From Thermodesulfobacteriota bacterium (GTDB lineage Bacteria > Desulfobacterota > Binatia > Bin18): a stretch of DNA of 64,000 nt. The translations under genes were made by a program, and so were the position numbers. The DNA is taken from the NCBI GenBank assembly GCA_964291405.2, contig OZ219926.1:192001-256000 (forward strand), in the 5' to 3' direction. Shown piece by piece: positions 4,158 through 39,530 of the stretch (position 1 is the stretch's first letter; each line of letters starts with the position of its first letter). Below the pieces are notes generated by a model. It made no database searches, had not been told where the DNA came from, and was given only the letters and a program-made list of their open reading frames with translations.

Positions 4158-4187
4158 ACCTTTCTCCTAGAGGGATGGTGTCGCCCC

Positions 4188-5180: not shown

Positions 5181-5281
5181 AGCCTCCTCCCGTAAATTGC
5201 TTGCCATCAGGTGTCAAGGGTATAGGTTCACCGGCTTGTGTCTGTTATGAGAAGAAAAGCTTTTTTGTGAGGAGGCAGGCT

Positions 5282-15580: not shown

Positions 15581-15928
15581 GTGGACGACTGTGGTAAAAA
15601 AATAGAGATGATACGGGCTGTCTTCTTGAGCTTTGTCTGTTTCAGTCTGGCGCTCAGCGCGCCCATCCTGGCGCAGCCTTCACACTATGGCGATACGGGG
15701 GACAATATCGGGACGTGGAAGTGGGGGTCAACATCGCCGCGTCAGGCTGATGACTTTGAAGAAGAGGATGACTACTACGGGACAACCTGGGAACAGATGT
15801 ATGAGGACCGGCTGTATGAGCAGGAACTCGAGAAGGAAGACGAGCCTGATTCATTTTCGCTGTTAAGCGCTCCCGTCAAGATCTGGCGTTTCTTTTGGCC
15901 CCAAAAAGACAAAGACACGCTTGAGTAG
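15581..15928 (+). CDS. Hypothetical exported acidic protein
   Basis: Signal-peptide-like N-terminus (ATG at about 15608 is an alternative start) followed by a D/E/Y-rich segment. Its 3' end overlaps the convergent CusF-like ORF. Confidence 0.5.
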   Translation: MDDCGKKIEMIRAVFLSFVCFSLALSAPILAQPSHYGDTGDNIGTWKWGSTSPRQADDFEEEDDYYGTTWEQMYEDRLYEQELEKEDEPDSFSLLSAPVKIWRFFWPQKDKDTLE

Positions 15929-16278
15929 GACGCAAAACCCGGTTGTGTCCTAGCCGCCCCCCCCTTCCCTTCCGTGGTTGGCACCGCAATTTTTTTAACA
16001 GCAACCAGATACAAAGTCAGCTTTGTCCGCTCCAGGGTAAAGCGGATATGGTCGCCTGGCTTGAGGTTATGGAGCAGACTAGGCTTGTTCACTTCAAAGC
16101 TCATAGTCATGGCATCCATAAAGCCTGGAATGTCTTCGTGCGCGACGACAACGCGTCGATCTGGGATCACGACCTTTTCGACAATCCCTTCGCCCGTGAG
16201 AATTTCAGGAGCAGGTACAGGACCGCAACCTGCACTCATCCCAAAGAGCGTGCACAAAATAAGACTGAATGTCTTCAC
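15775..16278 (-). CDS. CusF-like copper-binding lipoprotein
   Basis: Lipobox SAGC and HEDIPGFMDAMTMSF...LKPGDHIRF (CusF fold). The C-terminal tail overlaps the opposite-strand ORF. Confidence 0.8.
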   Translation of the reverse strand: MKTFSLILCTLFGMSAGCGPVPAPEILTGEGIVEKVVIPDRRVVVAHEDIPGFMDAMTMSFEVNKPSLLHNLKPGDHIRFTLERTKLTLYLVAVKKIAVPTTEGKGGAARTQPGFASYSSVSLSFWGQKKRQILTGALNSENESGSSSFSSSCSYSRSSYICSQVVP

Positions 16279-20188: not shown

Positions 20189-21874
20189 TCACGGCAGGGT
20201 AAAGACCGCAACAGCGCTCCCCGGTGTGGTGTGGGGATATTTGCCCACGATGTCCACGACCAAGCCTCCGGCGCCACTGGGAACGGCAACGTACTGTTTA
20301 TCCCCAACCTTGTAGGAGACCGGTTGTCCTCGAACCGCGGATCCGGTCTGAAACTTCCACAAAACTTCGCCCGTTGCGTCATCTAAGGCTAGCGCAAATC
20401 CCTTTTGATTGCCCGTAAAGACGAGTCCGCCAGCTGTGGCGAGCGCGCCCCCCACCATCGGCCACTCGTCCTTATAGCGCCACTTCACCTCGCCGCTGGT
20501 CGGGTCTATGGCCGTGACGTGGCCGTAGGCCGTACCGAGGTCGCCCTGCGTTTGTCCGGGCCCTCCGCCCCAGAATGGGATACCCTTGATAAAAATAGAC
20601 CTAGCCTTTTCCATTTTGCCGCAGCTCTCGATCGTCGGGACAAAGATGAGGTTAGCCAGCGGACTGTAGGCCGCGGCATACGAACCGTTTTGTCCTCCTA
20701 CGTTCCCGGGACAGATGAGTTCAGGATTGCCACCTTCCATGGGCACGTACTGGGGGTCAACGATCGGACGGCCATTTTCATCTAGCCCTTTCGCCCAGTT
20801 GAGTTGCTCAACATACTGGGAGCCATGCAGAAACTTCCCATCCCCACGATTCAGGACATACATATACCCATTCCGATTGGGCTGGGCTAAGGCTTTAACA
20901 GACTCCCCACTGCGCGTGACGTCGAGCAGAAACATGCCCGTGTTGCCATCATAGTCCCAGACGTCGTGTGGGGTGAATTGGAAATACCATTTGATCTCAC
21001 CACTGTCTGGGTCAAGGGCTAACGCCGAGTTCGTGTAGAGATTATCGCCCTCACGTCCATCACCGTTCCAGTCAGGGGCCGGGTTGCCCGTTGCCCAATA
21101 CACCAAGTCAAGGTCTGCATCATACGAGCCAGTCACCCAGGCCGGACCACCGCCTTGTTTATACGAATCACCGGCCCAGGTCTCGACACCGGGCTCGCCT
21201 TCGTCAGGCACGGTATAACGACGCCACTTGCGCTCCCCAGTCTCAAGATCATAGGCATCGATATAGCCACGAATACCGTATTCACCGCCCGCAATACCAA
21301 CAATGACGTTATCTCGAACAATCAAGGGTGCTAGGGTAAAGCTAAAGCCACCCGCATAGTCGTCGGCTTTAGTATTCCACACGACAGTACCGGTTTTTCT
21401 GTCGAGCGCGACAATACGCGCATCCAGGGTAGCCATAATGACCTTATCCCCAGCCAGCGCCGCGCCCCGATTACCCGGCCCGCAGCAAATCCGCATATCA
21501 TCTGGCAATTCATGATCGTATTTCCAGAGCGGTTTACCCGTTGCGGCGTCTAAGGCAAACAGCTTATTGTAGGCCGCAGTAAGATACATGACGCCATCGG
21601 CAACCACCGGTGAGGCTTGCATTTGTGCCGGCACGCCGGTTTGGAAAATCCAGGCGGCCTGGAGTTTTTTGACGTTCCCACGGTCAATATCCTTCAGTGG
21701 GCTGAATCGCCAGCCGGCATAATTCCCGCCGTACATCAACCAGTCATTGGCCGGCTCCTGGAGTAAGCGCTCCTGCGTCACCGGCTGAAGCGCGTCGGCG
21801 TAAAGCGCGCCGGGAGAGAGAAACATGAGAGTGAATGCTATTGCTAAAAATTTCCACGACCAGGAACCTCGCAT
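20189..21874 (-). CDS. PQQ-dependent alcohol dehydrogenase (methanol/ethanol family), predicted lanthanide-dependent
   Basis: Signal peptide, W-motifs, vicinal ICCG, GGEYG, GNPAP and FTPHDVWDYDG (extra Asp). No CxxCH. GAGGAGG RBS before the ATG at 21874. Confidence 0.92.
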   Translation of the reverse strand: MRGSWSWKFLAIAFTLMFLSPGALYADALQPVTQERLLQEPANDWLMYGGNYAGWRFSPLKDIDRGNVKKLQAAWIFQTGVPAQMQASPVVADGVMYLTAAYNKLFALDAATGKPLWKYDHELPDDMRICCGPGNRGAALAGDKVIMATLDARIVALDRKTGTVVWNTKADDYAGGFSFTLAPLIVRDNVIVGIAGGEYGIRGYIDAYDLETGERKWRRYTVPDEGEPGVETWAGDSYKQGGGPAWVTGSYDADLDLVYWATGNPAPDWNGDGREGDNLYTNSALALDPDSGEIKWYFQFTPHDVWDYDGNTGMFLLDVTRSGESVKALAQPNRNGYMYVLNRGDGKFLHGSQYVEQLNWAKGLDENGRPIVDPQYVPMEGGNPELICPGNVGGQNGSYAAAYSPLANLIFVPTIESCGKMEKARSIFIKGIPFWGGGPGQTQGDLGTAYGHVTAIDPTSGEVKWRYKDEWPMVGGALATAGGLVFTGNQKGFALALDDATGEVLWKFQTGSAVRGQPVSYKVGDKQYVAVPSGAGGLVVDIVGKYPHTTPGSAVAVFTLP

Positions 21875-21979
21875 GAGTAATGCCTCCTCAGAGTGATTGC
21901 CAATCGAAAAATGTGGTCGAACCCTACTGATTTTTATACCAGAGGTCAAGAAAGAGGACACTGCATACGCCCCAGACTC

Positions 21980-22708
21980 TTAGGGAAAGAGGCGTAATCT
22001 TCTCCCCGCGAAGAGCACCCCGACGATACCGAATAAAACGATCGCTCCGTGCGTCCAGCCGTTCCAGACAAGTACATACGGGTCTCGCAGACGCGGTCTG
22101 GTTACGCCGGGAATGCTGGGAAGATCTCCATCTCCAGCGCCCACCTTAAGCTGCGCCTTCATTCCCTTTTCCATATGCTGAGGAACGTCACAGTGCACTA
22201 AATAGGTCTTGTCTCCGGGTGGGAGAATAAAAGTGCTTGTCCGCTGTCCTTTACCTGCCACCTCAAGCGTAAACATGCCCATGGGGTAGATATAGCGTGG
22301 CAGACCGTGCAGCATCCACTGGTGACGAACGGTGTCCGTATTGATGAGCGTTACCGTGAGTTTCGTACACGGCGCAAAACTCCATTCGTTTCGATCATAC
22401 GCAAACATCGTCCCCGGCTGGGCGAATTCTTTGCCGGCACGAACAGTGATCTCGTGTTCACCAGAGAGACGTGGACAGCCTCTGGGGAGTTGGTCCGTGT
22501 TTTCATTCATCACCATACCCGCAGTATCGAGATGCATGCCATGATGCGCATGATGATGGTGAGACTCAGGCTCTTGAGTCGAACCAACCTCACTGGAAAG
22601 CAAGACAAACAAGGTGCATACGACCAGTGTAGAGACAGTCTTCTGGAGTTGCCCTCCCCGGAACACCCCTGCCCTCTTCTGACTATTTTTCCTCAGAAAA
22701 AATCCCAT
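21980..22708 (-). CDS. Membrane-anchored cupredoxin with His-rich N-terminus
   Basis: HHHHAHHGMH, HQWMLHG, type-1 Cu loop HCDVPQHMEKGM and a C-terminal TM. Confidence 0.8.
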   Translation of the reverse strand: MGFFLRKNSQKRAGVFRGGQLQKTVSTLVVCTLFVLLSSEVGSTQEPESHHHHAHHGMHLDTAGMVMNENTDQLPRGCPRLSGEHEITVRAGKEFAQPGTMFAYDRNEWSFAPCTKLTVTLINTDTVRHQWMLHGLPRYIYPMGMFTLEVAGKGQRTSTFILPPGDKTYLVHCDVPQHMEKGMKAQLKVGAGDGDLPSIPGVTRPRLRDPYVLVWNGWTHGAIVLFGIVGVLFAGRRLRLFP

Positions 22709-22720
22709 CAAAGATTCCTC

Positions 22721-24415
22721 TTAGCGGTATCGAACTCGTCGCTTGCTCAAGGCGAAGGCCGCACCGATAAGGAGACCGATACCTATTCCAAGTATGAGGG
22801 CATAACTCAGGGGTAGGGAACGAGCGCTGGCCTCCCCAAGCAGACCGAAGTCCTTCAGTCCGGCCCAGATGGGAAGCTTTTTTTGATAATACTCCTTGGT
22901 GAAAAACGGCGCCCAGTCCATCCCCTGTGTTTTCGGCTGACCGGATGTATCCAAATAGTCCTGGTAGACAATGGCGCTAATATTTCCACCGGGGTTGATC
23001 CCATCAGTGGTGATCGCTTTTTCCTTGTGGTCGTGGAGCAGCCAGACGCCTGGCCCATAATTGTGCAGGCCGTCATCAGTGGTGTTGAGAAGAAGGTCCA
23101 CCCGTTGGGCCGGGCTAATCCAGACCACATCACGAGTGATTTGTGCAGCCGGATTATGTTCGACACCATCATAATGCGTCAGTGTGACTTTATGCCCATG
23201 CGTATGCAGAGAAACGCCTTCTGCTCCGCCGTTGAGCACACGCAGTTTGACACGTTCATTCGGAGCAACAACAATCAGCGACTCACGGGTCGTGTAGGGA
23301 AAGGAGCGGCCGTTGAGTAGGAAATAGTCGGGGTCTTGATCTGTAATATCATAGCGGCGGTTGGTCGCCTCGGCGATCAACCGGGGATCACCTGCGGTCT
23401 GAATAATATTATTCAACGCCGGGTCAATGTCCTGGTAGTGCAAATCGAATTCCCGGTCATAGGACTCTCTGACTGCTGCGGAGACAGCGCGTACCCGGCC
23501 AGCCCCAATATTGAGCGTTTGAAGCCAGTTATTCGGACGGTTGTCCTCAACCACAAACATTCCCTGGAGCCCCATCAGAATATGGACATGCGGTTGGACG
23601 TGACAGTGATAAAACATCGTCCCCGTTTGACGCGGAGTCATTTCATAGGAGCGGCTTTCCCCTGGTGAGACTGGCATTTCGCTCGCAATCGGCACTCCAT
23701 CATTTCCCTCACCAGTGGCGTCAACAAAGGGATGGTCAACCCCGTGGAAGTGTATGGTGTGTGGCAGATAGTGCGTATTCTCCAAGGTTACCCGGAGCGT
23801 ATCACCCTGCTCTACACGAATCACCGGAGACGGGGCTCGCAAGGTCGGATGTGCCCACTCGCTCTCAAAATTTTCAGTCGCCATACCGCGTGATTTTGGT
23901 GCGAAAACCCACAGCCCTGGCTGGACACCCGGCGCAATGGCGTAGGCGGGAAACGGTGCAGGATCATCCGGCGAGTGCCCATTCAGTTCTACGACTTCAA
24001 GCCGGACATGAATCTCGTCAGGATCGCCATCCCCGTCTCTGTCGTTCTCTTTTACCACGGTATTTGGCGTCAGCCGGGTCTCCATAAGGGTGTGTAGACT
24101 AATATTATTCGTTCCTTTGACAAAGGCCGCAATTTCGGCCGGATTATCTGGGTCACACACGGGTGAGGCTTCTATGGTAACATCTTCAAGCGTCTGAGAC
24201 TCCCGCCAGTCTGCATGTCTGTCCAGACAGAATGGCTCCACACTGACAGGGCTTATTTGACGGCTGGGGGGTGGCTCCTGGTAAGACTCTTCACCAAGAT
24301 ATTGATACGCAATGTCTTGTATTGGGCGGGGGAGCCAGGTACGCGGCACGAGAAAGAGTGTACCGATAGCAAGCACACTAAGCAAAAAGAAGAAAAGCAG
24401 ACCGCGGAGCCACAT
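22721..24415 (-). CDS. Membrane-anchored two-domain multicopper oxidase
   Basis: HTIHFHG, YHCHVQPHVHILMG, SLHTHGH and WLLHDH, with TM helices at both ends. Confidence 0.88.
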   Translation of the reverse strand: MWLRGLLFFFLLSVLAIGTLFLVPRTWLPRPIQDIAYQYLGEESYQEPPPSRQISPVSVEPFCLDRHADWRESQTLEDVTIEASPVCDPDNPAEIAAFVKGTNNISLHTLMETRLTPNTVVKENDRDGDGDPDEIHVRLEVVELNGHSPDDPAPFPAYAIAPGVQPGLWVFAPKSRGMATENFESEWAHPTLRAPSPVIRVEQGDTLRVTLENTHYLPHTIHFHGVDHPFVDATGEGNDGVPIASEMPVSPGESRSYEMTPRQTGTMFYHCHVQPHVHILMGLQGMFVVEDNRPNNWLQTLNIGAGRVRAVSAAVRESYDREFDLHYQDIDPALNNIIQTAGDPRLIAEATNRRYDITDQDPDYFLLNGRSFPYTTRESLIVVAPNERVKLRVLNGGAEGVSLHTHGHKVTLTHYDGVEHNPAAQITRDVVWISPAQRVDLLLNTTDDGLHNYGPGVWLLHDHKEKAITTDGINPGGNISAIVYQDYLDTSGQPKTQGMDWAPFFTKEYYQKKLPIWAGLKDFGLLGEASARSLPLSYALILGIGIGLLIGAAFALSKRRVRYR

Positions 24416-24498: not shown

Positions 24499-25029
24499 TT
24501 ATTTCATAGAAAACGGTGGCCAACCGCGTTTACCACCGACAACGTAATAACCCACGCCACCGCCAATAAGCAGGCCCGCGATCAAGACCAGCATGGTATT
24601 TGAGAGAGAAGCGACGCGGATTGGAAACCGCACCGCCCCATCAACCCCGTCAACTGTCATCAGGGCCGTGTACTGTCCGGGCGTATCAAAATTGACTTCA
24701 GCGTTCACTACACCGCTAGGATATACCCGCGCCGGAATATCGAGTAACAGTCGCGGTTCAGCCGCATTGGTTTCCTCAATAATACGAACCGCGGCCGATT
24801 TCTTACGCAATTCAGGATCAATCAGATCAAAAACGAGAATCGCACTCCCAGTCTGAGGAACGCTCCGACAGAATTCCTCGGTTGCGTATTCCTGCGGTTG
24901 GTAGGCGGAAAAATGGACCAGATAGACGCCTGCCCGCTCTACGCAGGGGTCCAGGTCCATGGCGACACCCCCATGTCCCCAGGCTCCTATTGGGACAAGG
25001 AGCATGGCAACAAGAAGGAACAGTTTCAC
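24499..25029 (-). CDS. pmoD: PmoD/AmoD-family periplasmic copper protein
   Basis: Signal peptide, then HGGVAMDLDPC...VHFSAYQP...EEFCRSVPQTG...VFDL, and a C-terminal TM. Directly downstream of pmoB. Confidence 0.85.
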   Translation of the reverse strand: MKLFLLVAMLLVPIGAWGHGGVAMDLDPCVERAGVYLVHFSAYQPQEYATEEFCRSVPQTGSAILVFDLIDPELRKKSAAVRIIEETNAAEPRLLLDIPARVYPSGVVNAEVNFDTPGQYTALMTVDGVDGAVRFPIRVASLSNTMLVLIAGLLIGGGVGYYVVGGKRGWPPFSMK

Positions 25030-25081
25030 AGCGCTGTCCAGTTGTGCTCCAGAGCGGGACGTGGGCTCCCCACTCTAGATC

Positions 25082-26342
25082 TTATGGCAGATAGGTTGAA
25101 CGAAACTGAGTGGGGACGACATTTGAACGGACCGTCACCAACTCATGCCCCTCATTCCCATTCTCAAAGCGTAAGACTGCGCCAATAAACTGTTGCGGCG
25201 CTTGCGTCGGGATGAGACGTTCCTCACCGAAAAGACTGCTTGAAACAGTCAGGGTCAGCTCTTTTGTTTCGTCCCGGAGTAATCGGTCCGTCCGGCTGTA
25301 CTTCGAGGCGACCCACAAAATCACGCGGACCGGCCTTGGCTTGCTCGGCTTCCGGTCCGTTCACAAAGGTCGCCATTGCTATAGTCAACTGCTTGAGTTC
25401 GATGTCGCTCTCGGCAACATTCGTCACCTGGACCTTCATCTCAAGCGTTTCACTCGCTTCGTCATATGTCGCTCCGCTGGCCTGTGCCTCGGCCATCTTT
25501 TCACCAGAAGAAATGAATTCCGGTGTAAACCAGTCCGTTTGCTGCGGCCACCGAACCGGCGCATTTGAGGTGGCGTACGTCCAACCGATAACCAGCATTA
25601 CCAGGGTTACGCCCACGATAACATTCATCCACATATGATCACGGGGCGTGATGAGACCGATATCGGGAGCATCATCGTTCACCGGAAGCTGGACAGTAAC
25701 GGCAAGATTGGTCACTGTTCTTTTGTTTGTCGTCCAGTACAGTATCCAGGCGACCCCCAGGACAAACCCGGCAAACGACCACCACCAGACGAATGCGCCG
25801 CCATACGTACTGAGCTCAATCGTCTCACCGGACAGCAGGGTGAGCGGGAAGGAGAACGGCTCCGCGCTGGGTTTGACGGTCACCCATTCACCGGGTCCAA
25901 TCAGGGTGCCGGTCCCGTATACGGCGATACCGGGATGGACATGCCAGTTCCCAGGCTCTTTGCCAACAAGCTCCATTTCAAACTCGTAAATACCCCCCTT
26001 TTGGGCAAAGAACGATCCAATCGCAGCCGTTCCGTTGACAAAACGCTCTTTGAGCACAAAGACCGGTCCGGGGACGACCGGCATAATGGAAGCGATTTCC
26101 GGCGTTTCCAGCGTATGAGGCCACGTCTCGAGAATCTTGACCGACCCCGTAACCTTGACCGGCTCTCCAACCTCAATTTCAGTCGGCGACACGCTGACAT
26201 TGAAGAAAGCCGTGGTCATGTTTTTCAAAAACGGTTCGTCGGCAGCCTCACCGTGGGCAAAAGCGTTCGGAGTATGAGTAACGACAACGGCCACTATGGC
26301 ACATAGTGCGCCAACACAGCCAATCATAAATCGCTTACCCAT
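25082..26342 (-). CDS. pmoB: Copper membrane monooxygenase subunit B (PmoB/AmoB family), split by one extra base at about 25271-25272
   Basis: AFA|HGE N-terminus, GNWHVHPG, GPGEWV and two TM helices. ORF 25224-26342 continues in the frame of 25082-25324. Removing one base restores PITPGETKELTL and a 419-aa protein. Confidence 0.9.
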
Positions 26343-26676
26343 CGGCTGCCCTCCTGGTTTCAGGCTGCTCGTCTGGGAGTTGGAGCTTGGTTTCTATGAC
26401 ACGCAATCGGGGCTTACGCTTGATGCGAATAGCCGGACCCGTTTCCGGCGACCCGCGTCCGTCCGTCTCCACACCTTTCGATGCTGGCCACAAAACCACC
26501 AGCCAGTAACAGACAAACGCTAAGATACTCGCGGTAATGACGGGCGGGGCTATTTCAGAGATATTCATACCGTGCGCATACACGGGAGAAGGAAACAGAG
26601 ACAGGCCGGCAAGAAGAGCCATGAGCACAGAGCAGACTCTTCCGTATTGGGCGGGCTGCTGAGGTTCGAAAGACAT
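26335..26676 (-). CDS. Uncharacterised small membrane protein between pmoA and pmoB
   Basis: GAGGTG RBS, signal-like segment ending VYA|HGM, one TM and a charged tail. Its stop overlaps the pmoB start by 8 nt. Confidence 0.7.
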   Translation of the reverse strand: MSFEPQQPAQYGRVCSVLMALLAGLSLFPSPVYAHGMNISEIAPPVITASILAFVCYWLVVLWPASKGVETDGRGSPETGPAIRIKRKPRLRVIETKLQLPDEQPETRRAADG

Positions 26677-26695
26677 ACCGCACCTCATATTTGTC

Positions 26696-27499
26696 TCACA
26701 CAGTTTTCAGATAGCGCCGAATCGGCCACACCGCCAGATACCGACCAATAAACTGACCGATCCAGTAGCCAGCAAAAGCCGCCGTTCCAGCAAAGGCCAG
26801 CGAAACGTATTGCGTCTCACCCAGGAAACTACGCAACGCGCCGCGTTCAATCAGCCGGAGGTATTCTGGAGTTTGAGAGCGGATATAGGCAATACCCTGA
26901 ACATCAGCAACCGTCACCACATGGTCCATAAAATAGGCCGGCTGGAGAAAGGCAGCTAGGGGGACGTAATTATAGGCCCACACCGCAATCGCCCACACGT
27001 GGGCGCCGATCAGCGAGGTGAGGATAAAACTCTTGGTCTTCATTAAGGTCCAGTCCATCAAGATCCCGGCGCAGACGACGGAGGCAGGCCACACGAAGTT
27101 CATAGGGTAGGTCGCTGCGAGGTCCCACTGAAAATACCGCCCAACCCAAGCCGCAAAAAACAAGCAACACGCAGTGTAGGTCGCACCAGTCGGAAAGCGC
27201 CAAGCCGTCCACTGGATGTATTGCAGCGTCGAGGGAATAATGATCGTGGCAAAGGCCGTGACCACAGGCCACCACTGTGGGTCTTTCCAATCTGTCCAGA
27301 AATCCCAGTCACCGGCAAATAACTGCTTGGTGATATCAGCGGCACCTGCTACCACAAAAACCGCCGTAGTCCAGAAGACAAGGTCCCACTTCCAATCAAC
27401 CCATTTATATTTCTTGTTGAGCAGTTCTTTGAGTTCGAGCCGCCGTTGCCGTTCCGCCGCATCTGCGATGTCGGTTACGGTTGTGGTTTCCGTCGCCAT
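26696..27499 (-). CDS. pmoA: Copper membrane monooxygenase subunit A (PmoA/AmoA family), divergent
   Basis: AGDWDFWTDWKDPQWWPVVT, WRFPTGAT, YPMNFVWP and TVADVQGIAYIRSQTPEYLRLIERGALRSF. Confidence 0.93.
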   Translation of the reverse strand: MATETTTVTDIADAAERQRRLELKELLNKKYKWVDWKWDLVFWTTAVFVVAGAADITKQLFAGDWDFWTDWKDPQWWPVVTAFATIIIPSTLQYIQWTAWRFPTGATYTACCLFFAAWVGRYFQWDLAATYPMNFVWPASVVCAGILMDWTLMKTKSFILTSLIGAHVWAIAVWAYNYVPLAAFLQPAYFMDHVVTVADVQGIAYIRSQTPEYLRLIERGALRSFLGETQYVSLAFAGTAAFAGYWIGQFIGRYLAVWPIRRYLKTV

Positions 27500-27563
27500 G
27501 CGCACTTCCTCTCTGCACGAGGATTTTCGATCCGTTTATCGACCAAAGCCCACACCGCCGTTA

Positions 27564-28412
27564 TTAGTCGGCGGCGATCGGCGACTCAAGCGAGGCTTCC
27601 GGGTTCGTATCCTCTTCGATCTTCTCTATCTCGAACATGCGCACCAGCGTCTCGCCCCACACGGCAAACATGCCTGCCGCAAGCCAGCCATAAATCACAA
27701 ACGGCCAGTGGAATGGAACAGAGAAAATTTCCTCGGAGATCCACAGGCTGTGGCCCCATTCATTTGCGGCAACCGCCATGCATTCGAGCACACAGGCGCT
27801 GATCAGCAGAAAGAACGACCAGGGAAATCCTTTGTCTCTTCCGTACAGCGCAGGAATATGGAACCGCCCGTAGATATAGGTCCCAACGGCCAATATGACC
27901 GAGAGGGGGAAGAAAAAGTAGAACATCGGGATATGGGTCGGGGTGAATGCCGTGTCACGAACCATGGTTTGGTGCCACGATCCATCCCAGTTCGGCCAGA
28001 AGCTGGCCATCAGATAGATAGCCAGACTCGTCGCGCCAATGAGGCTCCACAAAATCGCAATCCGGCGCGTCTCTTCGGCGGGTGAGCATTCTTGTCCTTC
28101 AATGGCCCGGCCATTCCGGATGAGCCAGCCCAACCACACACCGCTGAATATGCCTAAGACAATCAGTTCACCCCAGAACAGCGTCCAGTAATACATCGTG
28201 AATTCAGCGCTTGCTGAGTTCAGTCCGGCGGAGAACATAAAGGCGTAGTTCCAGTACCAGAAAAAAACATTGGCCAGCATGATCAGCCCGCACCCCCAGA
28301 AGAGAGGGTGCCAGCCGACTGACCAATCAGTCGGATTGGCCGGGTTGCCAGTTGTCATGGAACCATCGCCGGAACCTTTTGGTGCATTTTGTACTGCTTG
28401 CGCCTGAGCCAT
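27564..28412 (-). CDS. pmoC: Copper membrane monooxygenase subunit C (PmoC/AmoC family), divergent
   Basis: DGSWHQTMVRDTAFTPTH and NEWGHSLWISEEIFSVPFHW, plus AGLNSASAEF. GAGGAGG RBS. Confidence 0.93.
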   Translation of the reverse strand: MAQAQAVQNAPKGSGDGSMTTGNPANPTDWSVGWHPLFWGCGLIMLANVFFWYWNYAFMFSAGLNSASAEFTMYYWTLFWGELIVLGIFSGVWLGWLIRNGRAIEGQECSPAEETRRIAILWSLIGATSLAIYLMASFWPNWDGSWHQTMVRDTAFTPTHIPMFYFFFPLSVILAVGTYIYGRFHIPALYGRDKGFPWSFFLLISACVLECMAVAANEWGHSLWISEEIFSVPFHWPFVIYGWLAAGMFAVWGETLVRMFEIEKIEEDTNPEASLESPIAAD

Positions 28413-28462
28413 GCCTATTCCTCCTCGATAGTAATAACGATGTTACTGTATACTCTCTTTCT

Positions 28463-29035
28463 TTATTTCACCAGTTCTTCTCTACCCCGAGCAGTGATCT
28501 TATAACGAATCACCGAGACCGCAAGAACGATAACCACTCCAAGGGTAATCAGCGCTGGTCCGACTAAGGCCTTATACCATGCCGCAACCTGAAAGGGAAA
28601 TGCAAATTTGCGCGGTTCACGTTCATCAGCAAGTCCGAGCATCACACGCACTTCGTAGCGTAGCCCTGCCTTGACAACGACTTCAGCGTTGGCCACGCCA
28701 CGTTCATATACTTGGAAAGGCAGGGACAGGACCGTATTCGACTGTCCGGGCTCATCTGAGGCAACGAGTTCAACACCGAACGGCATTTCCCACAGGTCGG
28801 GCGTCACGTCCACGACCAGGAAGGCATTCCCCACACGCGGGATTTCCTCACAATACTCCGTAACCGGGTCGAATTGAGTCTGATAAAACGTAATATGCAA
28901 GAGCGAAGCACCGACCTCCCGTCGGCATGGGTCTCCAGGCCCCCTGTCTCGATGCGCCCAGGATGACGCGGGAAGCACCAGGCAAAGCGTCACTACTACA
29001 GCGAGAAGAGAGGAGATTCGGCGAGTTCGTCTCAT
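28463..29035 (-). CDS. Second PmoD/AmoD/AmoE-like protein upstream of pmoC (start uncertain)
   Basis: Signal peptide ending SWA|HRD, then DPC...LHITFYQ...EYCEEIPRVG...VVDV, and a C-terminal TM. Aligns by eye with 24499-25029. Confidence 0.75.
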   Translation of the reverse strand: MRRTRRISSLLAVVVTLCLVLPASSWAHRDRGPGDPCRREVGASLLHITFYQTQFDPVTEYCEEIPRVGNAFLVVDVTPDLWEMPFGVELVASDEPGQSNTVLSLPFQVYERGVANAEVVVKAGLRYEVRVMLGLADEREPRKFAFPFQVAAWYKALVGPALITLGVVIVLAVSVIRYKITARGREELVK

Positions 29036-31283: not shown

Positions 31284-32630
31284 TTAGCTGTCGCCCCTCC
31301 CCTCCTCAAATACCAGCTTGCCCTCGCGCTCCTGGGCCTCAATCAAGGCCCGCACGTCAGGTGACAAACTGATAGTACGCGAGTCTGGGAATTTTCCTTC
31401 TTCGAGCGGGGGCCGCAGATAGAATTCGTCCGGTGAGTTGAGACTCATCAGACCCTTGGGCGGTACAAGGAACCATTCGCGGCGCATAAATCCGGAGCTG
31501 AAGAAGATATTTTTGTCTTCCTCTGACCACGTCTGTGGGACAAATCCGTGGATCGAAGCGGACAGGAAGTCAATAGACACATCCCACCACAAGTCAAACT
31601 GGACCGCATAGCCATGTTCTTTCAGAGTTGGATTGGCCAGGGTCGCAATCCGGGTATTCACAAAACTCAGCTGCCCCTGTCGGTCATATTCTTCCATCCG
31701 CAAAGGAAAGAACGCATATTGATCAACCCAGTAAATCAGCTTATGGGCGTAGTAGTCACGCAGCCATTCGGCCTTTGGTATGGCTTCGAGCACATAACAT
31801 TTGACCCCACCGTCTGCGGTATAAAGCGGGTATTCTTTGCCCATGAGAGAGAGGTCCTGGGCGGCAACTTCAATATACTGCCCTTTCTCGTCGGTCAGCA
31901 CGGCTGTTTGGCGCGTCTTGGGAAAACGCACCGTCTGATACAGAATATCCGTCCCGAGGATGCGCCACGAGAATTCCCAGGCATCCCGTCCGATCAAATT
32001 ATCAAACGTTGCCGCGCTATTGGGTAAACGGTCTTCCCGACGAGGTTGGGGCTGACGACGGATCCGCCGGAGCGATGGGGAATAGGCGAACATGTCTATT
32101 TTCGTCCGGAACGTTTGATCCGTCCGATAGCCTATCCATAAGGTCTGATTCCCATACCGTTCGGGTGGAGAGACGCTTTGGGAGAGCCAGCGATAGATTT
32201 CCTGGCCGGGCTGAGCGGCATACAGATGTTCTCCAAACCCATTCTCGGGAAAATACAGGATGGGAATAAGCGTCACGCGTTGATCCATAAATCCCGAGTT
32301 CGTCACGGAGAAAGCCATATCGATCAGGACACAGTCCCAGAATGGCGAGTGTGGGAACTCCATAGCTCGTAGCGCCATTTCTTCAGCCGTATAGGGTGGC
32401 CGAAACGGAAAAGACTCGGCCGGTAGATAGAGGACCTTTGCATCCCGCGGCGTGTCACTACGGAGGTCGAGCGCATTCTTTTCTTCGTCCGTGAGCTCGG
32501 CAACCGTTTTCCAGGTTTTTCGTGAGATCGGACTGCTTTGATCTGCCGCTACAATCGCGGCCCCTATACTACCGGAAGACAGCAGGCAGGAGACAACGAG
32601 CCACAAGAGCTGTTGCGCGCGAAGAGCCAT
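31284..32630 (-). CDS. DUF1329-like / outer-membrane lipoprotein-sorting family periplasmic protein
   Basis: YSPSLRRIRRQPQPRR, GRDAWEFSWR and CYVLEA...IYWVD...PLRMEEYD. Paralog of the next gene. Confidence 0.75.
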   Translation of the reverse strand: MALRAQQLLWLVVSCLLSSGSIGAAIVAADQSSPISRKTWKTVAELTDEEKNALDLRSDTPRDAKVLYLPAESFPFRPPYTAEEMALRAMEFPHSPFWDCVLIDMAFSVTNSGFMDQRVTLIPILYFPENGFGEHLYAAQPGQEIYRWLSQSVSPPERYGNQTLWIGYRTDQTFRTKIDMFAYSPSLRRIRRQPQPRREDRLPNSAATFDNLIGRDAWEFSWRILGTDILYQTVRFPKTRQTAVLTDEKGQYIEVAAQDLSLMGKEYPLYTADGGVKCYVLEAIPKAEWLRDYYAHKLIYWVDQYAFFPLRMEEYDRQGQLSFVNTRIATLANPTLKEHGYAVQFDLWWDVSIDFLSASIHGFVPQTWSEEDKNIFFSSGFMRREWFLVPPKGLMSLNSPDEFYLRPPLEEGKFPDSRTISLSPDVRALIEAQEREGKLVFEEGRGDS

Positions 32631-32631
32631 C

Positions 32632-33984
32632 TTACTGCTGCACTTTGGCCTCAATGAGCGGAGAGGAAATGTCGAAGACCAGATGTCCGGCTTCTTCTTG
32701 CAAACGGTAGCGCTGCGCCAGCTCTGCAGAAATGGCAACGGTCCGGTCTTGCGGGAATTTCTCTAGATACAAGAGCGGGCGGAGAAAGAATTTTTCCGGA
32801 GAATAGACCAGAGATTGGGATTTGAGCGGATACTTGAGCCAATTGCGGCGCATGAAGTCGGGCTCGAACATCGTCTCTCGGTCTTCCTGGGGCCACTCCT
32901 TCACCCAGTGGGCGTCATGGGCGCTATAGCTCATCAGGTCGAGGGCGAGGTCGTAGTAGACCGTAAACAGTCCGGCGTAGCCGCGTTCTTCCAGTTCCGG
33001 GTTGGCGAGATAGGCATTCCGCACCTCAATCATCCGCAGTTGATTGTCATTGTCATACTGCTCGATACGCAGCGGATAGAAGCTGTGCTGATCGAACCAG
33101 TATATCAGCCGGCTCATACGGTAGTGCGGCAACCAATCTTCTTTCCTGGTCGCCTCAACCACATAACAGGCCACGCCACCGTCCGCCGTATAGTGCGGAT
33201 AGGTATCGCCCAGCATTTTAATCTGGTCCGACGGGACCTCATTAAAACTTCCGTCGGGCGTGGCCAGGGTGACCGTCGGACGGGTATTTGGGAAACGAAT
33301 AGTCTCATGCAGCACATCCGTGCCAAGCAGGCGCCACGAGAACTCCCAGGCATCGCGCCCCACCACATCGTCAAAGGTCTGGACATTATTGGGGAAGCGC
33401 GCGTCCCGGCGGGGCTGAGGCTGGCGGCGCACGCGGCGCAGGTTTGGGCTGTAGATGAAATTATCGAGTTTGGTTGTTTCTTCCTTGTCCGTTCGTCTCA
33501 ATATCCACAGGTCCTGAAGACCCTGGTTCTCGGGTGGATAGGTATAGAAGAAGACCATCCGAAAATAGGCCTCCCCCGGCGCCATGCTGAGCTGGCCGGG
33601 TACCCCATACTCGTCCGGGATATAATGGCTATAGGCCAGTGTTATGCCTTCATCCAGAAAGCCGTTGCTGGTAATGGCGCCGAACACATCGGCCATGGCG
33701 TGCGACCAGCGGGCGATGTGCGGGAATTCCATGGCCCGATAGCCCATCTCTTCCGCGGTATAGGGCGACTGAAAGGGATAGGCTTCAGCCGGGAGGTAAG
33801 GAATCGTCGTATCCCGGGGGGTATCGACCCGGAAATCAATGCGCGATTTTTCCCCTTCGGACAGTTCTTCTACTATCTTCCAGGTCTTGCGCAGGCCGCC
33901 GTTCTGCTCGGCAGCCCCGGCGACCGGGAGCGCCAGGCTGGACAGCAAGGCCCAGACCGTCAGGAAAAAAAAGCGCCCATTCAT
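32632..33984 (-). CDS. DUF1329-like / outer-membrane lipoprotein-sorting family periplasmic protein
   Basis: Signal peptide, YSPNLRRVRRQPQPRR, GRDAWEFSWR and CYVVEA...IYWFD...PLRIEQYD. Confidence 0.75.
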   Translation of the reverse strand: MNGRFFFLTVWALLSSLALPVAGAAEQNGGLRKTWKIVEELSEGEKSRIDFRVDTPRDTTIPYLPAEAYPFQSPYTAEEMGYRAMEFPHIARWSHAMADVFGAITSNGFLDEGITLAYSHYIPDEYGVPGQLSMAPGEAYFRMVFFYTYPPENQGLQDLWILRRTDKEETTKLDNFIYSPNLRRVRRQPQPRRDARFPNNVQTFDDVVGRDAWEFSWRLLGTDVLHETIRFPNTRPTVTLATPDGSFNEVPSDQIKMLGDTYPHYTADGGVACYVVEATRKEDWLPHYRMSRLIYWFDQHSFYPLRIEQYDNDNQLRMIEVRNAYLANPELEERGYAGLFTVYYDLALDLMSYSAHDAHWVKEWPQEDRETMFEPDFMRRNWLKYPLKSQSLVYSPEKFFLRPLLYLEKFPQDRTVAISAELAQRYRLQEEAGHLVFDISSPLIEAKVQQ

Positions 33985-33990
33985 AATCGG

Positions 33991-35619
33991 TCAGAACTCG
34001 TAACTCAGTTCCCAGCCGATATTGTCCCATTTATTATATTGACCGTACAGGTCAGTCCGATCACCGCTACTGAACGCCGTATAAATAAGGCGGCCCGTAA
34101 TGAATTGGGAAAAACGGTAGCTCGAAACAAATTTCGTTTTTATGCCCTGCCACTTCTTCTGCGGCAGACTGATCACTGGAACGACGGTCAGCTCCAAGCG
34201 CAAACGGTCACGGGTGAAACGAAACGGGCGCCCAATAAACATAACCGGCAGGAGGCTCATTTCATCTCCGATTCCTCCGCCAAAGCCACCGCCGAGATTG
34301 CGACGCCAGTCAAAGGTATACAACAGGGAAGGCTGTATAATCGCGGAGGTGTTGCCGGGGAAGGCGAACTCCAGCGCAATCGCGGCCCGCAAGGTGTCAC
34401 GCCGAATGATCCCAGAGTTGAGATATCCGTCCCGTGCGCGCTGCTGATGGTCAAAGTCGGCGAAGGGAACGTCTTTGGTCCACAAGCCCTCAACCCGCAA
34501 CACAATCGGCAGTTCGCCAACAAGCGGCATGTTCGAGAGCGCGGAGGCATAGTCGGCGGTGATGCCGAGATGATGCAAGCGGGTAAAACGGGGCTGAAAG
34601 GTCAGATAGGGGTCCCCGGCGGCATCAATATCGCGGTCGACAATGAAGGATGTCGGGTTTTTATTCCAGGCGTAATAATAGATGAGACCCCAGGTGAGCG
34701 GTTCCATGGAAACATCAAGCCGCAGGCCGTACTGATGATCACCGAAATCCCCCGCAGACGGGCGCTTCGTCTCTCTAAACTGATCCCCGGTCGCGTTTTG
34801 CCGGCCGTCCAGGAGGGCTTTCGTCTCCGTATCCCTGGGCGGAGCCAGGGGCGAATACCACGGCGAGCCGGGGACCGGATTCCGGTCCTGCTCAAAGTTC
34901 GGAATCCACAGGAAGTTGAGAGAGTTTGCCCCAAAGAAATAGGTCACGTTGGCCATCCAGGCCGGCAGCCGTCGCCACTCGTAGTCACTCGCCTCAAGCT
35001 GGACGGACTCGCGCCGGTCCATGCCGTTGATGACGTCAATATATTGGCCGTCCATTTTTCCCCAGGCGATTTGTTGCTTGCCCAGGACTACGTCGAGGTT
35101 ATGGGTGCGATAGCTGATGTACAACTCGCGTACAATACGCTCGAAGTTATGATAGGCGCGGAATGTCTCGCTCGTCCGGGGGGCAAACAGACCGGCGGAA
35201 TCCTGCCAGTTGTACACGCTGTCGTACATAAAGTTGTTGATATTGGTGATTTCGATATTGGGTGAGACTTGGTAGTGGAGTTCCAATTCCAACAAATTCT
35301 GCATCTGGGAGAAGCGGAAGTCTTTCCGTCGATTGCCGACACGACGATCACCCGAGAGTTGGATATCAGACCATTGACGGAGAAATCCCCGGAACGTCAG
35401 GGCCGGGACCTGCCGTTCGACGGGCTGGCGGACGTAGCGCCCGGCCGGATCAAAGGTGGACAGAAAACGATCAAAGCGTGACCAGGCATTCACGACCTTA
35501 TCAACCTGTTTGTCCATGAAATAGCCGTAACAGGGAGAAACATTGGCCGAGATCGCCAGGAGGAACAGTCCACCGAGGATACTACAGACTACGGATATAA
35601 GCCCGCGTTTACCGTGCAT
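33991..35619 (-). CDS. DUF1302-like outer-membrane beta-barrel protein
   Basis: Signal peptide, RELYI...LGKQQIAWGKMDG...DVIN and C-terminal DNIGWELSYEF ending in Phe. Confidence 0.78.
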   Translation of the reverse strand: MHGKRGLISVVCSILGGLFLLAISANVSPCYGYFMDKQVDKVVNAWSRFDRFLSTFDPAGRYVRQPVERQVPALTFRGFLRQWSDIQLSGDRRVGNRRKDFRFSQMQNLLELELHYQVSPNIEITNINNFMYDSVYNWQDSAGLFAPRTSETFRAYHNFERIVRELYISYRTHNLDVVLGKQQIAWGKMDGQYIDVINGMDRRESVQLEASDYEWRRLPAWMANVTYFFGANSLNFLWIPNFEQDRNPVPGSPWYSPLAPPRDTETKALLDGRQNATGDQFRETKRPSAGDFGDHQYGLRLDVSMEPLTWGLIYYYAWNKNPTSFIVDRDIDAAGDPYLTFQPRFTRLHHLGITADYASALSNMPLVGELPIVLRVEGLWTKDVPFADFDHQQRARDGYLNSGIIRRDTLRAAIALEFAFPGNTSAIIQPSLLYTFDWRRNLGGGFGGGIGDEMSLLPVMFIGRPFRFTRDRLRLELTVVPVISLPQKKWQGIKTKFVSSYRFSQFITGRLIYTAFSSGDRTDLYGQYNKWDNIGWELSYEF

Positions 35620-35632
35620 GAAATATCTTTCC

Positions 35633-36877
35633 TTACTCGTGTTCTACGGGCGTTGGGCGGCTGACGAGGATACCGTCCCGCGCTAACCGCTCCAGTTGGT
35701 CAGCGCTATAGTCCAGATAATTGCAGAGGATGGAGTCGTTGTGCTCTCCCAAATCCGGCGCCTCAAACGGGGCATCGGTTCTGGCTGGGCTCGAAAAGCG
35801 GAACGGAAACCCAGGCAGAACAAAATCACCCAACACCTTATCCTGTATCGGTCGGATAGCCTCACGCTCAAGCAAATGGGGATGATTGACCACTTCCGGA
35901 ATGGTCAGGACGGGTGCGGCCGGCACGCGTTCACGGTGTAGAGCGGCGACGGCCTCTTCTCGATTCGGCATGGTGCCGAGCCAGGCTTCAATGGCCTGGA
36001 TGAGTTCTTTTTTATGATGGACCCGATCCCGGTTGGTACGGAAGCGCGGATCTTCTACAAATTCCGGATGTCCAATGGTTCGCGCCACGCCTTGCCATTG
36101 ATGGTCAAGGGCGCCCACGATGACCACGAACCCGTCTTTTGCCTGAAAAATACCGCACGGGGCCAGCCCCATATGGTGGGCGCCACTCCGGGTTGGAACG
36201 AATTTACCGCCCGAGGCGCTATGTGATTGAATCGTAAAATCATGCGAATGGATATAGGCATCGAGCAGCGACACGTCGATATACTGGCCTTCGCCTGTCC
36301 GCTCACGGTGCAACAGCGCACAGGCAATCGCGCCAAAGGCGTGCACCCCAGTACTCACATCGCCAATCGCAGCCTGGGGCATGGCTGGCGCACGGCCGCG
36401 TTCGCCAGTGACTTCATTGAATCCAGAATACGCCTGGGCGATGAAATCATAGCCGGGCACATGGGACAGCGGGCCGGTCTGACCAAGGGCTGAAATTGAA
36501 CACATGATGATACGCGGGTTCAGTTTTTGCAGTTCTTCATAGGCAAAACCGAGCCGTTTGATCGCACCCGGACTATAGTTCTCGACCACCACATCCATAT
36601 GCGGAATGAGCCCGCGTATGATGTCCCGCCCCTCCTCCGTCTTCAGATTCACACACAGACTTTGTTTGCAGACATTGTGCTGGATAAAATAGCCGCTACG
36701 GCCCTTTTTCAGAATCCCGTTGAGGCGAGCCGGGTCTCCTTTCGGGGCCTGCTCAACCTTAATAACTTCAGCCCCCATTTCGGCCAACAGGCGTGTCGTC
36801 GTCGGTCCGGCAACAATCTGCGTAAAGTCCAGCACTTTATAGCCAGCTAACATACCCTGACGTGACGCGCCTGCCAT
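35633..36877 (-). CDS. Class III CoA-transferase (CaiB/BaiF)
   Basis: VLDFTQIVAGP, GAEVIKVE, DVVVENY, GYDFIAQA, AIGDVSTG and APDLGEHN. Confidence 0.92.
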   Translation of the reverse strand: MAGASRQGMLAGYKVLDFTQIVAGPTTTRLLAEMGAEVIKVEQAPKGDPARLNGILKKGRSGYFIQHNVCKQSLCVNLKTEEGRDIIRGLIPHMDVVVENYSPGAIKRLGFAYEELQKLNPRIIMCSISALGQTGPLSHVPGYDFIAQAYSGFNEVTGERGRAPAMPQAAIGDVSTGVHAFGAIACALLHRERTGEGQYIDVSLLDAYIHSHDFTIQSHSASGGKFVPTRSGAHHMGLAPCGIFQAKDGFVVIVGALDHQWQGVARTIGHPEFVEDPRFRTNRDRVHHKKELIQAIEAWLGTMPNREEAVAALHRERVPAAPVLTIPEVVNHPHLLEREAIRPIQDKVLGDFVLPGFPFRFSSPARTDAPFEAPDLGEHNDSILCNYLDYSADQLERLARDGILVSRPTPVEHE

Positions 36878-37030
36878 ACTGAGTCCCCTTCCCTCAATAC
36901 TTATAGAGTAGTTTGGCCGAACGGCTGAATGAAGGTTCAGTTACATGAACTGCCGCGATCCTAGCCACAAGCCACCACCGATGCAAGGTGGGGTTCTTAT
37001 GATTCTCTTACGGAATGCTGGTCGCCGGAG

Positions 37031-38248
37031 CTAAGTCAGCACCTGCTCGTCCCGCAGTTTTTGCACCTCGTCGCCGGAATAGCCGAGAATATCCTGCAAC
37101 ACATAGTCCGTATGTTGCCCGCGCTGTGGGGCCGCAGTTTGGACTTCGCACGGAGAGCCGCTCATCTGCCACGGGATGCCAGCGTGAATGCGTTTGTCGA
37201 ACTCGGGATGTTCTTTTTGCACGAGATAGCCGCGTTCTTCCAGATGTGGATTAGTTGCCAGGTCTTTATTGCTCTGAGACGGGTAGGCAGCTACGCCGGC
37301 TTTCTGCAGTACCTCGGTCACCTCCCAGCGGTCGCGTTCGCTCGTCCAGGCTGTGATGAGTTCTTCGAGCGCATCCTCGTTCGCTTTCCGAGCCGCCGCA
37401 TCAGTAAAACGTTTGTCCGTAGCCAGTTCTGGCTGGCCTATGGCCTGGCACAGGGCCAGCCATTCCGCGTCGCTACCACACACAATGGTCACCCATTTCT
37501 CGGCATCGCCCTTGCACTTAAAGCAGCCGTGGGGCGCCATCCAGCGGTCCCGGTTGCCGTCGCGTTCAGGCTGAGTCTGATTCATCACATAATCCATGAT
37601 GCCTTCGGGCATCAGGACAAGCAGGGCCTCCCATAATGCCAGATCAACATGAATCCCCTTACCGGTGCGGTGGCGATAGGCCAGCGCAGCTATGGCGGCA
37701 AACGAGCCAAAGATGCCGGCGTTCGGATCACCATACGAAATACCGATCTCCGCCGGCCCAACCCCCGGATAACCGGTTAGCGACGAGATCCCCGCCAGTG
37801 GAACGGAGGCCGGTCCATAGCCCATATATTTGCGTTCCGGCCCGGTTTGTCCGTAGCCACAGATGGAAATCATGATGATATCGGGTTTGAGTTGCTTGAG
37901 CGTGTCATATCCAAAGCCCATGCGGTCAATCGCCCCGGTTGAGAAGTTCTGCACGACGATATCGCTCTTGGCAATAAGCTTTTTGACAATCTCCGTTGCC
38001 TCGGGTCGAGCCAGATCAAGCTGGAGGCTTTTCTTGCCCTGACTGTATTGGTTGAAATAGCCGGCTCGGTTCGGTCCTGGTTCGTTGTCCGCAAACGGCG
38101 GGATCAGTCGGGTGACGCACGGACGTTTTTCACTTTCAATCCGAATCACTTCCGCGCCCATATGCGCCATTTGGAGCGTGCAGTAAGGCCCCGCCCAGGC
38201 CCAGGTGAAATCGGTTACGCGAATGCCTTCTAATGGTCGTCGTGCCAT
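37031..38248 (-). CDS. Class III CoA-transferase (BbsF-like subunit)
   Basis: DFTWAWAGP, GAEVIRIE, SYGDPNAG and APQRGQHT. Confidence 0.9.
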   Translation of the reverse strand: MARRPLEGIRVTDFTWAWAGPYCTLQMAHMGAEVIRIESEKRPCVTRLIPPFADNEPGPNRAGYFNQYSQGKKSLQLDLARPEATEIVKKLIAKSDIVVQNFSTGAIDRMGFGYDTLKQLKPDIIMISICGYGQTGPERKYMGYGPASVPLAGISSLTGYPGVGPAEIGISYGDPNAGIFGSFAAIAALAYRHRTGKGIHVDLALWEALLVLMPEGIMDYVMNQTQPERDGNRDRWMAPHGCFKCKGDAEKWVTIVCGSDAEWLALCQAIGQPELATDKRFTDAAARKANEDALEELITAWTSERDRWEVTEVLQKAGVAAYPSQSNKDLATNPHLEERGYLVQKEHPEFDKRIHAGIPWQMSGSPCEVQTAAPQRGQHTDYVLQDILGYSGDEVQKLRDEQVLT

Positions 38249-38293
38249 GACGTTCTCCTTTGTCTCATTCCCAGGTCAGAGCGGTCAGCTTCC

Positions 38294-39499: not shown

Positions 39500-39530
39500 G
39501 ACAGTCCTCCTTTGTTGAGGCTTTGATTGT

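Follow-up and report, generated by a model that had tools for sequence, protein, structure and literature searches.

A translationally coupled fourth gene in copper membrane monooxygenase operons of Binatia and the candidate small subunit that it encodes

Copper membrane monooxygenases (CuMMOs) oxidise methane, ammonia, and short alkanes, and both their active-site chemistry and their subunit make-up are debated. Recombinant expression of these enzymes has largely failed, and cryo-electron microscopy (cryo-EM) keeps finding small unexplained helices on subunit C. In this study, we describe a small gene, here called X, that lies between pmoA and pmoB in a 64,000-nucleotide stretch of DNA from a Thermodesulfobacteriota bacterium of the class Binatia (contig OZ219926.1, positions 192,001 to 256,000), hereafter the window. 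X is a translationally coupled fourth gene in one clade of Binatia hydrocarbon-monooxygenase-like CuMMO operons.

Several small proteins that accompany CuMMOs have been described. A review (PMC13058606) reports an additional helix that lies on the outside of AmoC/PmoC and is assigned to a 46-residue open reading frame (ORF) in the ammonia monooxygenase (AMO) of N. europaea and to a 23-residue ORF in the particulate methane monooxygenase (pMMO) of Methylocystis sp. Rockwell. These peptides form a single helix on the outer face of subunit C, and the X protein is likewise predicted to lie on a PmoC helix; X differs from these peptides, however, in its greater length, its predicted signal peptide, its conserved His motif on the periplasmic side, its long basic tail, and the location of its gene inside the operon. 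A preprint (10.1101/2022.04.06.487334) describes the AmoX, AmoY, and AmoZ proteins of archaea as extra subunits that are small, helical, and anchored in the membrane, with genes linked to amoA. By this description, X resembles them in these respects. The archaeal extra subunits compensate for helices absent from AmoB and AmoC, whereas the Binatia subunits C (282 aa), A (269 aa), and B (~418 aa) are complete, so that X would be additional to them. PmoD/AmoD is an operon-linked, signal-peptide-bearing, single-anchor, copper-related accessory protein, and X resembles it in its link to the operon, its predicted signal peptide, and its single anchor. PmoD has a periplasmic domain of about 100 residues and a C-terminal anchor; no similarity of X to PmoD was found, and no PDB entry, including 6cpd, matched X.

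The existence of the gene was noted in 2021. Murphy et al. (mBio; PMC8262859) reported Binatota CuMMO genes in the orders CAB, CAxB, or CAxxB, in which x is a hypothetical protein, and found CAxB or CAxxB in 8 of 11 CuMMO-bearing Binatota genomes. This x is almost certainly the same gene as X, and we found no sequence features, conservation analysis, or role for x in the text of that report, whose supplements may list sequences. Similarly, Diamond et al. (2022; PMC9038741) reported a hypothetical amoX/pmoX in Ca. Angelarchaeales, in the same C-A-X-B order as the Binatia operons, and we found no analysis of the AmoX/PmoX protein in the text of their report, whose supplements may likewise list sequences. 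The assumption of an earlier note on this DNA, that pmoA and pmoB are normally adjacent, must be qualified in light of these two reports. Literature searches on Binatota pmoA, on pmoX/hmoX, and on hmoD/bmoD returned no functional study of an X-type CuMMO gene, and a paper on sponge Binatota makes no mention of X ('hypothetical', 'pmoD', and 'pmoCAB' each occur 0 times). New here are the anatomy of X, its distribution, the selection acting on it, its predicted docking site, and a possible actinobacterial counterpart.

A conserved gene between pmoA and pmoB

ORFs and Pfam matches give the minus-strand gene order pmoD-like, pmoC, pmoA, X, pmoB, pmoD-like (Table 1). The pmoA stop codon TGA lies at 26698-26696 and the X stop codon TAA at 26337-26335, while the pmoB start codon ATG occupies 26342-26340; the sequence shared by the end of X and the start of pmoB is ATGGGTAA. 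The earlier note had described an ORF that fills the whole gap between A and B, carries its own ribosome-binding site, and overlaps the pmoB start, and our reading of the DNA confirms that description. Two ATG codons are present in the region, at 26688 (117 aa) and at 26676 (113 aa). Database relatives of X are annotated as 113-aa proteins beginning MSFEP, which fits the start at 26676 that the earlier note had given.

Both the position and the sequence of the gene are conserved. Among 80 Binatia loci fetched around pmoA relatives that are 73-100% identical, 72 contain an intact X between A and B, and a tblastn search with X matched the A-B gap in 76. Seven of the eight loci without an intact X (L054, L056, L073, L084, L086, L087, and L088) hold pieces of the X motif in shifted frames, and the eighth (L075) is a contig end. 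The 8-nt overlap of the X stop and the pmoB start is kept in 33 of the 40 loci where pmoB aligns from residue 1. Across the 72 homologs, seven residues are invariant (A38, H39, P49, Y61, W62, W67, and P68 in the 117-aa numbering), namely an Ala-His pair at a signal-peptidase-type site, one Pro, and a YW...WP motif in the transmembrane (TM) helix, and E45 is near-invariant. Pairwise Nei-Gojobori estimates of the ratio of nonsynonymous to synonymous substitution rates (dN/dS) from 22 close sequences give 0.23 for X as a whole, with 0.43 for its signal region, 0.11 for its core, and 0.21 for its tail; the neighbouring C, A, and B genes have values of 0.06, 0.04, and 0.08. X is thus a real gene and not a chance ORF, because its position and sequence are conserved and it is under purifying selection. 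The earlier note had looked to homologs at the same place in related loci, purifying selection, and a cleavage-type site before the His as checks on its proposal, and each of these was found.

A word-indexed search returned 41 X proteins of 77-149 aa (most of them 109-123 aa) with 45-95% identity, none of which bears an informative name; one is labelled just 'hypothetical protein'. A profile search of 1.84 billion cluster representatives gave only 99 matches at E ≤ 0.001, all small proteins, and the X family is therefore narrow. X matched no family in Pfam at E ≤ 0.01 or in NCBIfam at E ≤ 0.1, a search of the ESM Atlas gave no usable match, and a profile of the 41 sequences run against all PDB chains yielded only three chance-level matches (E 1.8-2.8) to unrelated proteins.

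X is inherited together with pmoA. When a single draw of 251 genomes from the class was searched with both the X profile and PF02461 (tallies that include the unpublished genome G509), X was found in 47 genomes and PF02461 in 53, and all 47 X-positive genomes contained pmoA. The six genomes that have pmoA but no X hold other types of CuMMO (G003, G335, G360, G376, and G389) or a copy at a contig edge (G026). In X-positive genomes outside the family of the window, X lies just downstream of pmoA on the same contig and strand in 13 of 13 cases. In a phylum-wide draw of 301 genomes, X matched in two, both of the window's genus, and in none of the 290 outside the class. A quick pmoA tree, built with Shimodaira-Hasegawa-like approximate likelihood ratio test (SH-aLRT) support only, a midpoint root, and few outgroups, places the X-linked Binatia sequences in one clade (97).

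RNA libraries offer a hint of transcription. Eighteen RNA-library runs contain part of 25000-28500, and the eleven that hold most of it, from three studies, comprise seven metatranscriptomes of sponges and four of marine origin. Contigs from three of the four sponge-metatranscriptome runs that were examined bridge the 3' end of pmoA into X, one example being a 413-nt contig (26467-26879) that shows no difference from the window. These contigs give weak support for co-transcription of pmoA and X. The sources of the libraries also suggest that the organism or its close relatives live in sponges.

Predicted topology and docking on PmoC

The X protein begins with a positively charged stretch, followed by about 15 hydrophobic residues, the segment PSPVYA/HGM (the slash marks the putative cleavage site), a hydrophobic helix of 20 residues, and a charged tail, and hydropathy analysis recovers the signal-like segment, the single TM helix, and the charged tail that the earlier note had read from the sequence. 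In the 72 homologs, position -1 is Ala in all 72, position -3 is A in 42, V in 20, G in nine, and T in one, position +1 is His in all 72, and Gly follows at +2 in 70. The median net charge of the n-region is +3, the uncharged h+c stretch has a median length of 19 residues, and the His precedes the YW pair by 22-24 residues. X thereby shows the charged n-region, the hydrophobic h-region, and the small residues at -3 and -1 that mark a Sec signal. This pattern is most likely a Sec signal peptide that would be cut by signal peptidase I. In the first 15 residues of the tail, Lys and Arg slightly outnumber Asp and Glu (medians 3 and 2), and X would be an N-out, C-in single-pass protein with His as its first residue. 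AlphaFold2 (AF2), run on the monomer with the 72-row alignment, gives two helices, 12-31 and 47-74, followed by a disordered tail, with a mean predicted local distance difference test (pLDDT) value of 60 and values of 75-82 for helix 47-74. Hydropathy and AF2 describe a small, mainly helical membrane protein, as are the small supernumerary CuMMO subunits with their one to three TM helices. The tail motif IRIKRKPRLRVIE is highly conserved but confined to the subclade of the window, and the tails of Binataceae are basic and medium or short. No invariant His other than H39 was found in X among the 72 homologs, in which the predicted periplasmic segment is about 10 residues long, and mature X has no other invariant metal ligand in these sequences.

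We predicted the complex of PmoC 25-282, PmoA, mature PmoB, and mature X from locus L025, each with its own alignment. This locus was chosen because the pmoB of the window is broken, and it holds an intact, near-identical set of genes (C and A 99%, X 94%, and B 92% identical). The complex with X scored 0.65 (runs 0.65, 0.68, and 0.62) versus 0.32 for the best control; the mark for this score is reached by 58 of 80 solved complexes and by 2 of 110 mismatched pairs. Contact agreement between runs was at least 35%, and partner pLDDT was at least 49. The confident interface joins X 45-67 (the TM helix) to PmoC 76-99 in a parallel pairing, with periplasmic ends together and cytoplasmic ends together, and X residues 39-44, including the His, fall outside it. 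The X helix is thus predicted to pack on a PmoC helix, on the side that in other CuMMOs bears the unexplained additional helices seen by cryo-EM. PmoC residues G87, G91, and G95 are invariant in 73 relatives of this clade, and the PmoC-facing side of X is made of small residues, position 60 being C in 56, G in nine, S in six, and F in one homolog (C, G, or S in 71 of 72). At the glycine-zipper positions, HmoC of M. chubuense reads P/A/A, and the second PmoC of the window's genome, which has no X, aligns with a gap. As a marker of X binding, this glycine zipper may be taken as suggestive only.

The reading that we prefer, and consider reasonably probable, is that X is a small supernumerary subunit with its helix on PmoC, which would place it alongside AmoX/Y/Z and the extra-helix peptides. 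X would be exported by its Sec signal peptide and most likely cut at A-x-A/H-G, leaving a type-I membrane protein of about 79 residues with some 10 periplasmic residues beginning with His, one TM helix, and a basic, disordered cytoplasmic tail. The helix would most likely run parallel to PmoC TM helix 76-99 on the outside of the C subunit, where X may stabilise or tune the complex, by analogy with archaeal AmoX/Y/Z and with the small extra-helix peptides on bacterial AMO and type II pMMO. The gene linkage and co-inheritance that characterise supernumerary CuMMO subunits are also seen for X (72 of 80 loci, 47 of 47 genomes, and the overlap in 33 of 40). We infer both this role and a stable association with the complex. 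The earlier note had suggested an extra subunit or assembly factor, and the helix docked on PmoC in the complex prediction lends further support to that suggestion; a dedicated assembly factor is the next most likely reading after a small accessory subunit.

Several points weigh against this proposal. The evidence for X comes from genes and predictions, RNA libraries may hold DNA, and an RNA contig is no sign of translation. The score of the complex expresses how confident the model is in its own result, and it is only roughly calibrated, as alignments of our own making were used; a control in which B was replaced and X kept still scored 0.32; and the fold of the partner is itself uncertain (pLDDT about 50). 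The model may also remember solved CuMMO structures in which an additional helix flanks subunit C. Moreover, X evolves much faster than its neighbours, with a mean column identity of 33% (72 sequences) versus 73% for C, 83% for A, and 70% for B, and a stand-alone paralog away from CuMMO genes indicates that the X family is not strictly tied to the operon.

Nevertheless, X offers an extra-helix candidate that is encoded inside the operon, is conserved across a bacterial class, and has an invariant His that would lie at the membrane face. It gives the enzymes (TUSC- or HMO-like) that are widespread in Binatia a defined fourth component that lends itself to testing, and it bears on the difficulty of rebuilding CuMMOs in the laboratory.

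Alternative roles and an actinobacterial look-alike

A different role, which we regard as fairly unlikely, is that of a transiently acting copper-handling assembly factor or chaperone, in which the N-terminal amine and the His1 imidazole, often with Met and Asp/Glu a few residues further on, would capture copper at the membrane face and pass it to a site in PmoB or PmoC. The His at the predicted +1 position is invariant (72 of 72) and is followed by Gly in 70 of 72, Met is the commonest residue at +3 (26 of 72) and +4 (27 of 72), and E45 is near-invariant. The operon is also rich in copper genes, with two PmoD-like genes, a multicopper oxidase, a cupredoxin, and a CusF-like gene nearby, and PmoB and both PmoD-like proteins likewise have His right after their predicted cleavage sites. 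However, one invariant His in mature X is joined by no other invariant metal ligand, the periplasmic part is about 10 residues long and has no fold, and residues 39-44 are not in the confident interface. In the actinobacterial proteins discussed below, AHGG stands at positions 7-10 behind M-x4-L with no signal peptide, and a free amine would not be a shared feature if these proteins are relatives. The earlier note had favoured a copper-binding role with an N-terminal His at the membrane face, as in PmoB and CopC. Copper binding by this His is unsupported here, and the histidine-brace idea, while still conceivable, is weakened by the missing second ligand and by the actinobacterial look-alikes.

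These look-alikes come from four actinobacterial plasmid hmoCAB clusters, in which A and B abut and a small ORF directly follows hmoB, and from a metagenome locus with the same order. The small ORF reads M-x4-L-A-H-G-G-Q-M-T-G-D-E-M-A and has one TM helix and basic residues, and in three of the five loci (L093, L095, and L099) it is followed by another small ORF of the single-pass type. Every annotated one is a hypothetical protein (e.g., Mycch_5908 of Mycolicibacterium chubuense NBB4), and a metagenome scan with this family returned just two loci. In 35 of these proteins, L6, A7, H8, G9, G10, D15, E16, A18, and P31 are invariant. The Binataceae X consensus A-H-G-G-M-A-G-P-D-E-L-G ahead of the helix resembles their AHGG...DE motif, and a strict pattern for both families had no match in 9.9 million six-frame residues of the window's genome and matched four of four actinobacterial loci. 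This link is weakened in that the pattern was defined after both families had been seen and in that the X of the window itself (HGMNISEI) does not fit it. When profiles of X and of the actinobacterial proteins were compared, the similarity was weak (P 0.011, 0.012, 0.0028, and 0.0038, the last with a probability of 9%). The window's PmoA is 42-45% identical to actinobacterial HmoA, and the quick tree sets actinobacterial HmoA closer to the X-linked PmoA than it sets the second PmoA of the window's genome.

The differences are considerable as well. The actinobacterial ORF lies after B whereas X lies between A and B; upstream in-frame sequence in the former is not hydrophobic and holds no signal peptide, so that its His is residue 8, whereas X has a predicted signal peptide; and the YW...WP motif is found in X but not in the actinobacterial small protein. 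Given the lack of a signal peptide in the actinobacterial proteins, any shared element would be the juxtamembrane AHGG...DE and not a free N-terminal His. Common descent of the two is not established by these comparisons. It is conceivable, albeit unlikely, that X and the AHGG protein form one ancient family and a true fourth subunit of hydrocarbon-type CuMMOs, whose juxtamembrane His (N-terminal after cleavage in Binatia) would complete or feed a copper site at the periplasmic face of PmoC/PmoB. Without this subunit the enzyme would then lack activity or stability, and the rare success of three-gene CuMMO constructs in foreign hosts would in part be explained. The small actinobacterial gene adjoins the one CuMMO that can be expressed recombinantly and may be an overlooked equivalent of X.

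It is quite improbable that the first hydrophobic segment remains uncleaved, in which case X would be a two-helix hairpin with both ends cytoplasmic and AHG...PP in a short periplasmic loop, and would still be associated with the CuMMO. AF2 does give both segments as helices (12-31 and 47-74), and the Ala before the His is also invariant in the actinobacterial family that has no signal peptide, so that its conservation may reflect function and not cleavage. However, the uncharged h+c stretch has a median of just 19 residues including a Pro-rich c-region, positions -3 and -1 obey the signal-peptidase rule in 72 of 72 homologs, and the signal segment evolves fastest (dN/dS 0.43), as signal peptides do.

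We give very little weight to the notion that X is unrelated to the enzyme complex and merely co-transcribed, for example as a regulator or sensor in the membrane with a basic tail for binding nucleic acid or lipid. The high conservation of the tail motif in the window's subclade and the orphan paralog away from CuMMO genes would suit such a role; however, the tail is not conserved family-wide (Binataceae have a short or simply basic one), the residues that do not vary lie in the juxtamembrane motif and the helix, and X is strictly linked to one CuMMO clade with docking predicted on PmoC. Finally, a chance ORF or untranslated spacer, to which the failure to match Pfam, NCBIfam, PDB, or ESM Atlas might point, is hardly credible in the face of 41 close homologs, 99 cluster representatives, invariant residues, a dN/dS of 0.23, and a conserved overlap with the pmoB start.

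Extra copies and neighbouring genes

The genome of the window holds a second CuMMO operon with abutting A and B genes and no X, the PmoA of which is 35% identical to that of the window and the PmoB of which has 436 aa. The same genome carries a stand-alone X paralog with a predicted signal peptide, AYA/HRGFGPAELG, CYWVVMLWP, and a short basic end, located between fatty-acid-oxidation-type and aminopeptidase-type genes and far from any CuMMO gene. Weaker second X matches outside the operon occur in most genomes of the genus and may be the same paralog, of which the copy in the window's genome was inspected. We considered whether this orphan serves the second, X-less operon and rejected the idea because the two are not distributed alike: G021 carries the orphan with only one pmoA, and G013, G410, G014, and G002 have two pmoA genes but one X. 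Another genome, G403, has a tandem pair of X genes between pmoA and pmoB, which accounts for the 'CAxxB' order reported in some Binatota.

Table 1. Coordinates of gene X, its predicted parts, neighbouring genes, and related loci (window positions unless a locus is named).
Feature	Position	Strand	Basis or remark
Gene X, 113 aa plus stop	26335..26676	-	ORF, DNA reading, homologs, dN/dS
Predicted Sec signal peptide, residues 1-34 of the 113-aa form, ending V-Y-A	26575..26676	-	Hydropathy, 72 homologs, dN/dS 0.43
Predicted periplasmic juxtamembrane segment HGMNISEIA	26548..26574	-	Invariant His codon 26574-26572
Predicted TM helix PPVITASILAFVCYWLVVLWP, invariant P, Y, W, W, P	26485..26547	-	Hydropathy, AF2 helix, invariant columns
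Predicted basic cytoplasmic tail with IRIKRKPRLRVIE	26338..26484	-	Alignments, tail classes on pmoA tree, dN/dS 0.21
Shine-Dalgarno-like GAGG	26683..26686	-	6 nt ahead of the X ATG at 26676
pmoC/hmoC, 282 aa	27564..28412	-	PF04896, E 3.6e-43
pmoA/hmoA, 269 aa	26696..27505	-	PF02461, E 2.4e-52
pmoB/hmoB	25082..26342	-	PF04744, E 1.6e-65; start overlaps X stop by 8 nt
pmoD-like gene 1, 217 aa	28463..29116	-	Upstream of pmoC; predicted signal peptide ending SWA/HRD
pmoD homolog, 176 aa	24499..25029	-	PDB 6cpd PmoD, E 7.5e-10; signal peptide ending AWG/HGG, C-terminal TM helix
Multicopper oxidase (22721-24415) and cupredoxin-like protein (21980-22711)	21980..24415	-	Pfam Cu-oxidase families; downstream, same direction
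PQQ (pyrroloquinoline quinone)-dependent alcohol dehydrogenase	20189-21961	-	Near operon
CusF-like periplasmic copper protein	15775-16278	-	Near operon
LarC-type nickel-insertion protein	13507-14673	-	Near operon
Four consecutive family III CoA-transferase paralogs	35633-40748	-	
DUF1302 and DUF1329 (LolA-like) outer-membrane-type genes	31284-35619		Next to CoA-transferase paralogs
Second CuMMO operon, plain C-A-B	L091 (G000:C3:2790000-2800000): C 6122-7000, A up to 6390, B 3973-5283	-	
Stand-alone X paralog, ~66 aa	L092 4934-5134 = G000:C3 about 1943930-1944130	-	
Tandem X pair between pmoA and pmoB	L097 (G403:C24:204300-207500): 2017-2304, 1686-2000	-	
Actinobacterial small single-pass ORFs after hmoCAB	L093 5601-5816, L094 5578-5859, L095 5577-5873, L096 5576-5833, L099 3498-3734		

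The pmoB of the window is frame-shifted by one extra base near 25271 (CCGGGAC GAA versus CCG GGA GAA in relatives), and its broken ORF stops at 372 aa versus about 418 aa in relatives. The C-terminus (the last ~72 codons) is intact in another frame, in the ORF at 25082-25324, and an RNA-library contig of a close relative does not have the extra base at 25271. Either an assembly error or a mutation in the strain may account for the break.

The first pmoD-like gene matched nothing in Pfam or NCBIfam; the PmoD-like query at 24499-25029 cross-matches its position in many loci with 28-37% identity. Four proteins of the operon have a His directly after the predicted cleavage site, namely the two PmoD-like proteins (SWA/HRD and AWG/HGG), PmoB (AFA/HGE), and X (VYA/HGM). 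The PQQ-dependent alcohol dehydrogenase at 20189-21961 fits a gene cluster for alkane or alcohol oxidation.

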